64,000 nt of DNA from the IMG/VR virus record IMGVR_UViG_3300021514_000002, positions 224,001 through 288,000 of that record. One strand, written 5' to 3'. Under the pieces are notes generated by a model, which saw only the letters and a program-made list of their open reading frames with translations, was not told where the DNA came from and did no database searches. The stretch comes from a virus (lineage: Duplodnaviria; Caudoviricetes). Positions 28,271 through 28,344 of this stretch are shown here, one piece after another; the first letter of the stretch is position 1; every line of letters starts with the position of its first letter. A program made the translations under genes and the position numbers.

Positions 28271-28344
28271 TGGTGCCCACGGTGGGATTCAAACCCACGT
28301 ACAAGGATTTAGAATCCCCTGCTATATCACTCAGCTACGCGAGC
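28271..28344 (-). tRNA. tRNA with CUA anticodon (amber suppressor type), encoded CCA
   Basis: Full cloverleaf: GCUCGCG/CGUGGGC acceptor, GGGGA-UUCUAAA-UCCUU anticodon arm, GUGGG-UUUGAAU-CCCAC T arm, ACCA end. Confidence 0.85.

Follow-up and report, generated by a model that had tools for sequence, protein, structure and literature searches.

At 28271-28344 (minus strand) lies a tRNA(CUA) gene that selection has probably maintained as a genuine amber suppressor in a jumbo phage of 363.5 kb. The window, by which we mean the whole 64,000-nt stretch of DNA that was analysed, corresponds to bases 224001-288000 of one contig of 363,531 bp with 36% GC. The ends of the contig seem to overlap by 131 bp, for its first 30 bases reappear at base 363,401. 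Since the contig carries 45 tRNA genes and a permuted tmRNA, we regard it as a jumbo phage genome. ARAGORN found four RNA genes in the window, all on the minus strand: the permuted tmRNA, a tRNA-Arg(CCU) and two CUA tRNAs. The tmRNA (9835-10219, minus strand) is of the two-piece type, with the tag AANDAFFEETRLAA, and scores on permuted and alphaproteobacterial tmRNA models. These scores hint at a host of the alphaproteobacterial type.

The tRNA was found where the earlier note had placed it. ARAGORN called a tRNA with the anticodon CUA at 28344->28271, 74 nt long including an encoded CCA, and Rfam RF00005 matched 28274-28344 with 58.9 bits (E 3.6e-10; gathering score 29) across the whole model (positions 1-71 of 71); none of the pairs was flagged as non-canonical. 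This score lies within the range of the other tRNAs of the phage. The RNA folds as a canonical class-I cloverleaf. Its acceptor stem (GCUCGCG/CGUGGGC) consists of G1-C72, C2-G71, U3.G70, C4-G69, G5.U68, C6-G67 and G7-C66, and is followed by U8 A9. The D stem GCUG/UAGC encloses the loop AGUGAUA, which has G18 A19 and not GG, and a single A leads to the anticodon stem GGGGA/UCCUU with the loop UUCUAAA (U33, C34 U35 A36, A37 A38). A 4-nt variable loop, GUAC, precedes the T stem GUGGG/CCCAC, whose loop UUUGAAU has U56 and not C56, and the 3' end consists of the discriminator A73 and the CCA. The GA in the D loop, the UUU in the T loop, U3.G70, A73 and CCA had all been read correctly in the earlier note; G5.U68 as a second wobble pair, the shortness of the variable loop and the minus-strand orientation go beyond its list. 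As in an amber suppressor, the CUA belongs to an anticodon loop of 7 nt in which position 33 is U and position 37 a purine. About 40 of the 45 tRNAs of the phage have an encoded CCA, which argues against decay, yet is not peculiar to the tRNA(CUA) gene.

For the unmodified RNA, a non-cloverleaf fold is predicted to be favoured (-28.9 versus -22.1 kcal/mol for the cloverleaf), because GGGGAUUC can pair with GAAUCCC. The orthologue described below is free of this complementarity, and its cloverleaf (-27.6 kcal/mol) lies 1.9 kcal/mol from the predicted minimum (-29.5 kcal/mol).

A search with the bS21 protein encoded next to the tRNA revealed one close relative, G001 (IMGVR_UViG_3300009514_000363), a 61.5-kb fragment (18% complete, CheckV). 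It is collinear with the window by tblastn, with proteins 50-88% identical, and the comparison that follows rests on this one close orthologue. The syntenic tRNA, at L001:3910-3987, has the acceptor stem GCUUGCG/CGCAGGC followed by UA, the D stem GCUC/GAGC around AGCUGGUCA, a single G, the anticodon stem GGGAA/UUCCU with the loop CUCUAAA, the variable loop GUCCGC, and the T stem GCGGG/CCCGC with the loop UUCGAAU, then A and CCA. Its elbow is canonical, with G18G19 and C56, while CUA, U3.G70, A73 and CCA are unchanged. In the alignment of the two loci (A1), both partners differ between target and orthologue at pairs 4-69 (C-G to U-A), 13-22 (G.U to C-G), 30-40 (G-C to A-U) and 50-64 (U-A to C-G). 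The earlier note had proposed that the gene is maintained, and the orthologue, which keeps CUA, U3.G70, A73 and CCA while its stems have changed compensatorily, supports this.

A looser IMG/VR scan yielded at least 20 further distinct phage tRNA(CUA) genes with the pattern G1-C72, (C/U)2-G71, A73 and CCA (loci L214-L281). In an alignment of 22 phage tRNA(CUA) sequences (A2: target, orthologue and 20 further genes), 96.1% of the cells of the cloverleaf were paired and 14 of 21 pairs had changed on both sides, and none of 500 shuffles was as good. The 7-, 4-, 5- and 5-bp stems thus show compensatory changes both in the orthologue and in the family. The 3-70 pair is U-A in nine sequences of A2, C-G in seven and U.G in five. 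No homologue with a sense anticodon, which would have pointed to a sequencing error, was found. A blastn search of GenBank phages gave no match, and a metagenome scan gave no CUA homologue among the matches listed, which were bacterial Met, Thr and Lys tRNAs. Two more tRNA(CUA) genes were seen in the control genomes G026 and G027 (L310, L312).

GOLLD, bS21 and the surrounding locus

On the minus strand the order is an RNA ligase gene, two promoters, a GOLLD RNA with a CUA insert, the bS21 gene, 11 nt, the tRNA, a 216-nt spacer and the gene of a 179-aa protein. The bS21 gene (28356-28571, minus strand) encodes a phage ribosomal protein of 71 aa (Pfam Ribosomal_S21, E 1.2e-15; PHROG 21469) that is 80% identical to its orthologue in G001. 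The tRNA begins 11 nt after the stop codon of this gene, and a pattern scan found no promoter-like site between the two, so that co-transcription of bS21 and the tRNA is likely. The Rfam-matched part of GOLLD (28630-29088, minus strand; RF02032, 199.3 bits, E 9.5e-55) is upstream of bS21 in the same orientation, about 300 nt upstream of the tRNA. Two sigma70-like promoters of consensus sequence (TTGACA-16-TATAAT, 12/12), detected by pattern scan at 29522-29653 (minus strand), are candidate starts of a GOLLD-bS21-tRNA transcript, and the RNA ligase gene is just upstream of them.

The linker of GOLLD holds the second CUA tRNA-like element (28952-29023, minus strand; ARAGORN; Rfam tRNA 67.9 bits), which has a Gln-like D arm, a U3/U70 mismatch and U73, and has no CCA. 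The relative has a GOLLD of 210.6 bits with the CUA insert kept at L001:2560-2634, and the order GOLLD, bS21, tRNA(CUA) is kept as well. There the tRNA has a near-consensus promoter of its own upstream (TTGACA-17-TATAGT). The gene of a QueC-like PP-loop ATPase of 206 aa (L001:3227-3847, plus strand) lies between bS21 and tRNA(CUA) in the relative and is absent from this place in the window.

The spacer between the tRNA and the next gene (28055-28270, minus strand) contains a promoter-like site (28228-28200) and a short ORF, MTKEWSTSHT followed by TAG, that is in frame with the next gene in the target phage. It is conserved at the nucleotide level, sharing the blocks GTGGTCnnGATCCTCC and AATAGGAGAATTA with the relative (L001:3988-4180; alignment A1). 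A conserved amber-interrupted leader ORF was considered and rejected; the frame of the relative has two TAGs, then TGA, and is out of frame with the gene. GTGGTCnnGATCCTCC is an anti-Shine-Dalgarno-like CCUCC element about 60 nt upstream of an AGGAG site, and the two could form a translational control hairpin. The 179-aa protein (27515-28054, minus strand) is 51% identical to its syntenic counterpart in G001 by tblastn; it gave no Pfam match, a weak PHROG match only and no Atlas structural lead.

GOLLD RNAs are known to adjoin tRNA islands, sometimes hold tRNAs in their linker and were pulled down with ribosomes (10.1101/2024.12.08.627333). The target resembles such GOLLD-associated tRNAs in lying about 300 nt downstream of a GOLLD that bears a tRNA-like insert. 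Unlike the tRNAs embedded in GOLLD, it is free-standing, with a protein gene between it and GOLLD, and CUA anticodons are not mentioned for GOLLD-associated tRNAs in the published accounts consulted (10.1101/2024.12.08.627333). The linker tRNAs and the ribosome pull-downs lead us to retain, as a less favoured rival, a function outside bulk decoding that is tied to GOLLD with its CUA insert and to bS21. The tRNA might be a cargo or partner of a GOLLD nanocage, a regulator that targets the ribosome, or a decoy or replacement against host defences that cleave tRNAs. Such a role would suit the gene order kept in G001, the RNA ligase gene just upstream and the failure to find a TAG target in the phage. 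We consider it unlikely all the same. The free tRNA, unlike the tethered insert, is fully equipped for normal charging and decoding: its acceptor stem is intact, A73 and CCA are present, and its anticodon loop is optimal. At least 20 other phage contigs harbour similar CUA tRNAs, and a GOLLD match was present at none of the five fetched loci checked by Rfam (L271, L248, L263, L278 and L214). As for the decoy, we know of no tRNA-targeting defence aimed at a CUA tRNA.

Genetic code and the RF1-type factor

Both the phage and its relative G001 use the standard code. With code 11 the coding density is 0.85 genome-wide, 0.875 in the window and 0.83-0.97 across the 20-kb bins of the window, and reading TAG through gains no more than reading TGA through, in the relative likewise. 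TAG ends 50 of 459 ORFs (about 11%) and is the rarest stop. The six longest in-frame TAG candidates turned out to be adjacent genes or to have no domain across the TAG, and no Pfam domain spanned an in-frame TAG among the six. Structural genes are intact, up to 3702 aa. Neither of the signs of a code-15-like cognate decoder, in-frame TAGs in conserved genes and a density restored when TAG is read as sense, was observed. Because the code is standard and no domain runs across TAG, we take the tRNA to be a putative read-through suppressor and not a sense decoder.

These results weigh heavily on the alternative that TAG is a sense codon in all or part of the phage, as in code 15, with tRNA(CUA) as its cognate decoder. 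CUA tRNAs are a hallmark of TAG-recoded phages, and the GC content of 36% and the rarity of TAG as a stop would agree with recoding. The density, the domain analysis, the intact structural genes and the standard code of the relative nevertheless largely refute it, and we reject this alternative as highly improbable. TAG recoding was likewise not seen in the fetched loci of the other phage contigs with similar CUA tRNAs. Among large phage contigs whose fetched loci lack signs of TAG recoding, tRNA(CUA) genes of the amber-suppressor type are common.

Suppression at particular genes of the phage was also considered. Programmed C-terminal extension at TAG was not detected: the median open frame downstream is 6 codons after TAG, versus 7 and 6 after the other stop types (p 0.76). 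TAG stops are mostly not kept between orthologues of the phage and the relative, the only one in the window common to both being that of a 138-aa ORF (38588-39004) with an extension of 6 codons. No dedicated amber-suppression target was found in the phage. Outside the window, an RCC1-repeat protein of 377 aa (G000:C1:341316-342683, plus strand, locus L313; G000:C1 denotes the contig) ends in TAG, beyond which a stretch of about 78 codons contains TAG three more times but neither TAA nor TGA. The extension looks like a decayed extra repeat, and it could be a site where amber suppression matters. Elsewhere on the contig, an ORF near G000:C1:140704-141700 (minus strand, locus L143) matches the Cas5fv helical domain (E 3.4e-61), which suggests that the phage may carry a type I-F-variant CRISPR-Cas module.

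The phage also carries an RF1-type release factor gene (G000:C1:60098-60781, minus strand; locus L152:1435-2118). The product is shortened to domains 2-4, without domain 1, with the PPT (at the PxT position) and GGQ motifs present, and the gene has one in-frame TGA, exactly on a conserved Trp. A short RF1-like gene of similar design occurs in phage G004 (L282), where it contains in-frame TGAs and a change of frame, and phage G011 has a full-length RF1-type gene. Since an RF1-type factor in the phage should oppose amber suppression, we asked whether this gene and the CUA tRNA are linked. Both are present in five records (G000, G004, G011, G043 and G044), two of which were not chosen for their CUA tRNA. 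However, no CUA tRNA was found within 10 kb of close homologues of the RF1-like gene; G046 (65% complete) and G048 (a fragment, 19% complete) have an RF1-like gene and no CUA tRNA in their assembled tRNA islands, and at least six near-complete genomes have a CUA tRNA without an RF1-type factor. Obligatory coupling was therefore rejected as a rule, as each occurs without the other.

It is conceivable, if doubtful, that the tRNA(CUA), co-expressed with bS21, the GOLLD-tethered CUA unit and the shortened, UGA-gated RF1-type factor form a conserved programme that tunes UAG termination without recoding. If so, these elements would jointly set the ratio of suppressor to RF1, and hence the read-through of UAG in host or phage messages, at the various stages of infection.

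The A19-U56 elbow pair

In place of the canonical G19-C56, the target has A19-U56, which keeps Watson-Crick pairing. The earlier note had taken this pair for covariation and not decay, and three comparisons, with the orthologue, within the same genome and across IMG/VR, agree with it. The orthologue, as described above, has the canonical elbow. Among the 45 tRNAs of the phage, A19 occurs in exactly two, and U56 in exactly the same two. In IMG/VR, the A19 D arm UAGCUNAGUGAUANAGC was found with a GGUUUGA T arm (U56) in 48 contigs, spanning many isotypes (Thr, Asn, Val, Phe, Gln, Met, Ile, His and Gly), and with GGUUCGA (C56) in only 8. The baseline for U56, taken over distinct phage tRNAs whose D loop has GG, is 3 in about 309 (about 1%). 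The swap from G-C to A-U is isosteric and covarying. Together the three comparisons therefore identify A19-U56 as a rare, recurrent, compensated variant; it is neither damage nor specific to the amber suppressor.

The second tRNA of the phage with this pair is a bona fide tRNA-Ala(UGC) with G3.U70, located outside the window (G000:C1:59286-59360, minus strand), about 740 nt from the RF1-type gene; its D loop is AGUGAUA (A19) and its T loop UUUGACU (U56). Two phage tRNA(CUA) genes from IMG/VR (L248:2726-2800 and L228:1852-1925) have G18 U19 and the T loop UUAGAAU (A56), and their U19-A56 would be a third Watson-Crick version of the elbow. An A19 D arm with a U56 T loop was seen in 84 of 185,579 species genomes (GTDB; loci L316-L395), which by their record titles are mostly DPANN archaea (Woesearchaeota, Pacearchaeota and Nanoarchaeota), CPR bacteria and Flavobacteriales MAGs. 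No paper on 'A19-U56' turned up in the literature collection that was searched. It is conceivable, if doubtful, that the A19-U56 and U19-A56 variants let phage tRNAs evade a host factor that recognises the G19-C56 elbow. The target provides a natural example in which the near-invariant G19-C56 is replaceable by A-U (and U-A) when both partners change, which is useful for tRNA engineering and for the tuning of tRNA detectors.

With these data, it is very improbable that the gene is a decaying or neutral relic whose anticodon has mutated to CUA and whose GA and UUU loops are damage. The unusual loops, the two G.U pairs of the acceptor stem, the predicted non-cloverleaf minimum and the lack of an identified target could be cited for such decay. 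They are outweighed by an orthologue that keeps CUA and all helices through compensatory changes, by the joint change of positions 19 and 56 here and across phage tRNAs, and by an Rfam score in the range of the other tRNAs of the phage.

The 'Pyl' label that ARAGORN gave the target, as it did every CUA tRNA reported in this analysis, reflects nothing but the anticodon. In a tRNAPyl the D loop is shrunken, the variable loop has 3 nt and the anticodon stem 6 bp, and the GG and T-loop (TPsiC) consensus is missing. A pyrrolysine tRNA can be dismissed, since the CUA is all that fits and the target has a 7-nt D loop with G18, a 4-nt variable loop, a 5-bp anticodon stem, the T loop UUUGAAU (UUxGAAU in pattern) and A73.

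Charging and relation to known suppressors

The earlier note had warned that the amino acid carried by the tRNA is not obvious, and this caution was justified. By similarity, the nearest tRNA bodies are of the Arg(UCU), Lys(CUU), Met and Thr types, with GCNNGCG...A73 acceptors, which is not decisive. The expectation of Gln or Lys in the earlier note agrees with Normanly et al. as summarised in PMC1483225, and the identity sets given there lean towards Lys. In E. coli, tRNA-Lys is recognised by U34, U35, U36 and A73, with A31-U39 strongly preferred (PMC1483225). Target and orthologue both have U35, A73 and A31-U39, C34 is tolerated, and U36 is replaced by A36, a match that would be compatible with mis-lysylation and is no proof of it. 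Of the ten elements of E. coli tRNA-Gln (U1-A72, G2-C71, G3-C70, G10, Y34, U35, G36, A37, U38 and G73; PMC1483225), four are matched (G10, C34, U35 and A37); the mismatches are G1-C72, C2-G71, U3.G70, A73, A36 and A38. We infer that Lys would be likelier than Gln under the rules of E. coli, which may not apply to the host of this phage. Tyr is a minor possibility, for A73, U35 and A36 fit, but a long variable arm is missing. The G3.U70 identity element of tRNA-Ala, which the tRNA-Ala genes of the phage itself have, is reversed to U3.G70 in the target.

No synthetase of the Glu/Gln type was found in the phage genome. Inside the tRNA island, a 192-aa ORF (G000:C1:18736-19314, minus strand; locus L153:1282-1860) resembles weakly a class-II aminoacyl-tRNA-synthetase core (Pfam tRNA-synt_2, 26.5 bits; weak pheS and serS matches) and is too short for a full synthetase.

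Judged from sequence and gene order, a host-charged suppressor that would compete with RF1 is the most economical reading. The tRNA would share a transcript with the bS21 gene, which ends 11 nt before it, and this transcript may start at the strong promoters that precede GOLLD; in the relative, the tRNA would be transcribed from its own promoter. Maturation would fall to host RNase P and 3' nucleases, and charging to a host synthetase that reads U35, most likely LysRS, because of A73, A31-U39 and C34, with GlnRS second. Isopentenylation of A37 is probable, as A36-A37-A38 forms the MiaA context, which favours efficient reading of UAG. On the ribosome, the tRNA would compete with RF1 at UAG, and the outcome would be partial read-through of UAG-terminated host and phage ORFs rather than sense decoding. 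The phage could benefit from disturbing host proteins at takeover, from buffering amber mutations in its 363-kb genome, or from a first step towards TAG recoding as proposed by Borges et al.

A phage amber-suppressor tRNA is of a kind already known, found here in a standard-code jumbo phage. Suppressor tRNA(CUA) genes occur in TAG-recoded phages, among them crAss-like and Lak phages (Borges et al., 10.1101/2021.08.26.457843). With these the target has in common a phage-borne class-I tRNA(CUA), a low-GC phage and a presumed charging by a host synthetase. The recoded phages, however, have in-frame TAGs in late genes and sometimes encode RF2, whereas the target phage and its relative show no recoding and the target phage carries an RF1-type gene. 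Suppressor tRNAs in standard-code relatives of recoded phages have been described as a possible first step to recoding (10.1101/2021.08.26.457843). Like the target phage, the Agate lineage has a suppressor tRNA while its genome still uses the stop codon as a stop (10.1101/2021.08.26.457843), but that suppressor reads TGA in a gut phage, and ours is of the amber type, from an environmental phage of 363 kb. In the target phage TAG is not strongly depleted (11% of stops), and the synteny of the tRNA with GOLLD and bS21 is conserved.

Laboratory amber suppressors of E. coli insert Lys or Gln (Normanly et al. 1990, as summarised in PMC1483225). The target shares with them a CUA on a body without strong acceptor-stem identity, as well as the U35 that attracts LysRS and GlnRS and the A73 and A31-U39 that favour LysRS. 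The laboratory suppressors were engineered from known isoacceptors, whereas the nearest bodies to the target are of several types, as given above.

The target thus adds to a little-discussed class, the amber-suppressor tRNAs of large phages in which TAG has remained a stop. Such suppressors may be precursors of recoding, may sabotage the host or may buffer nonsense mutations, and this locus offers a diverged orthologue for comparison.
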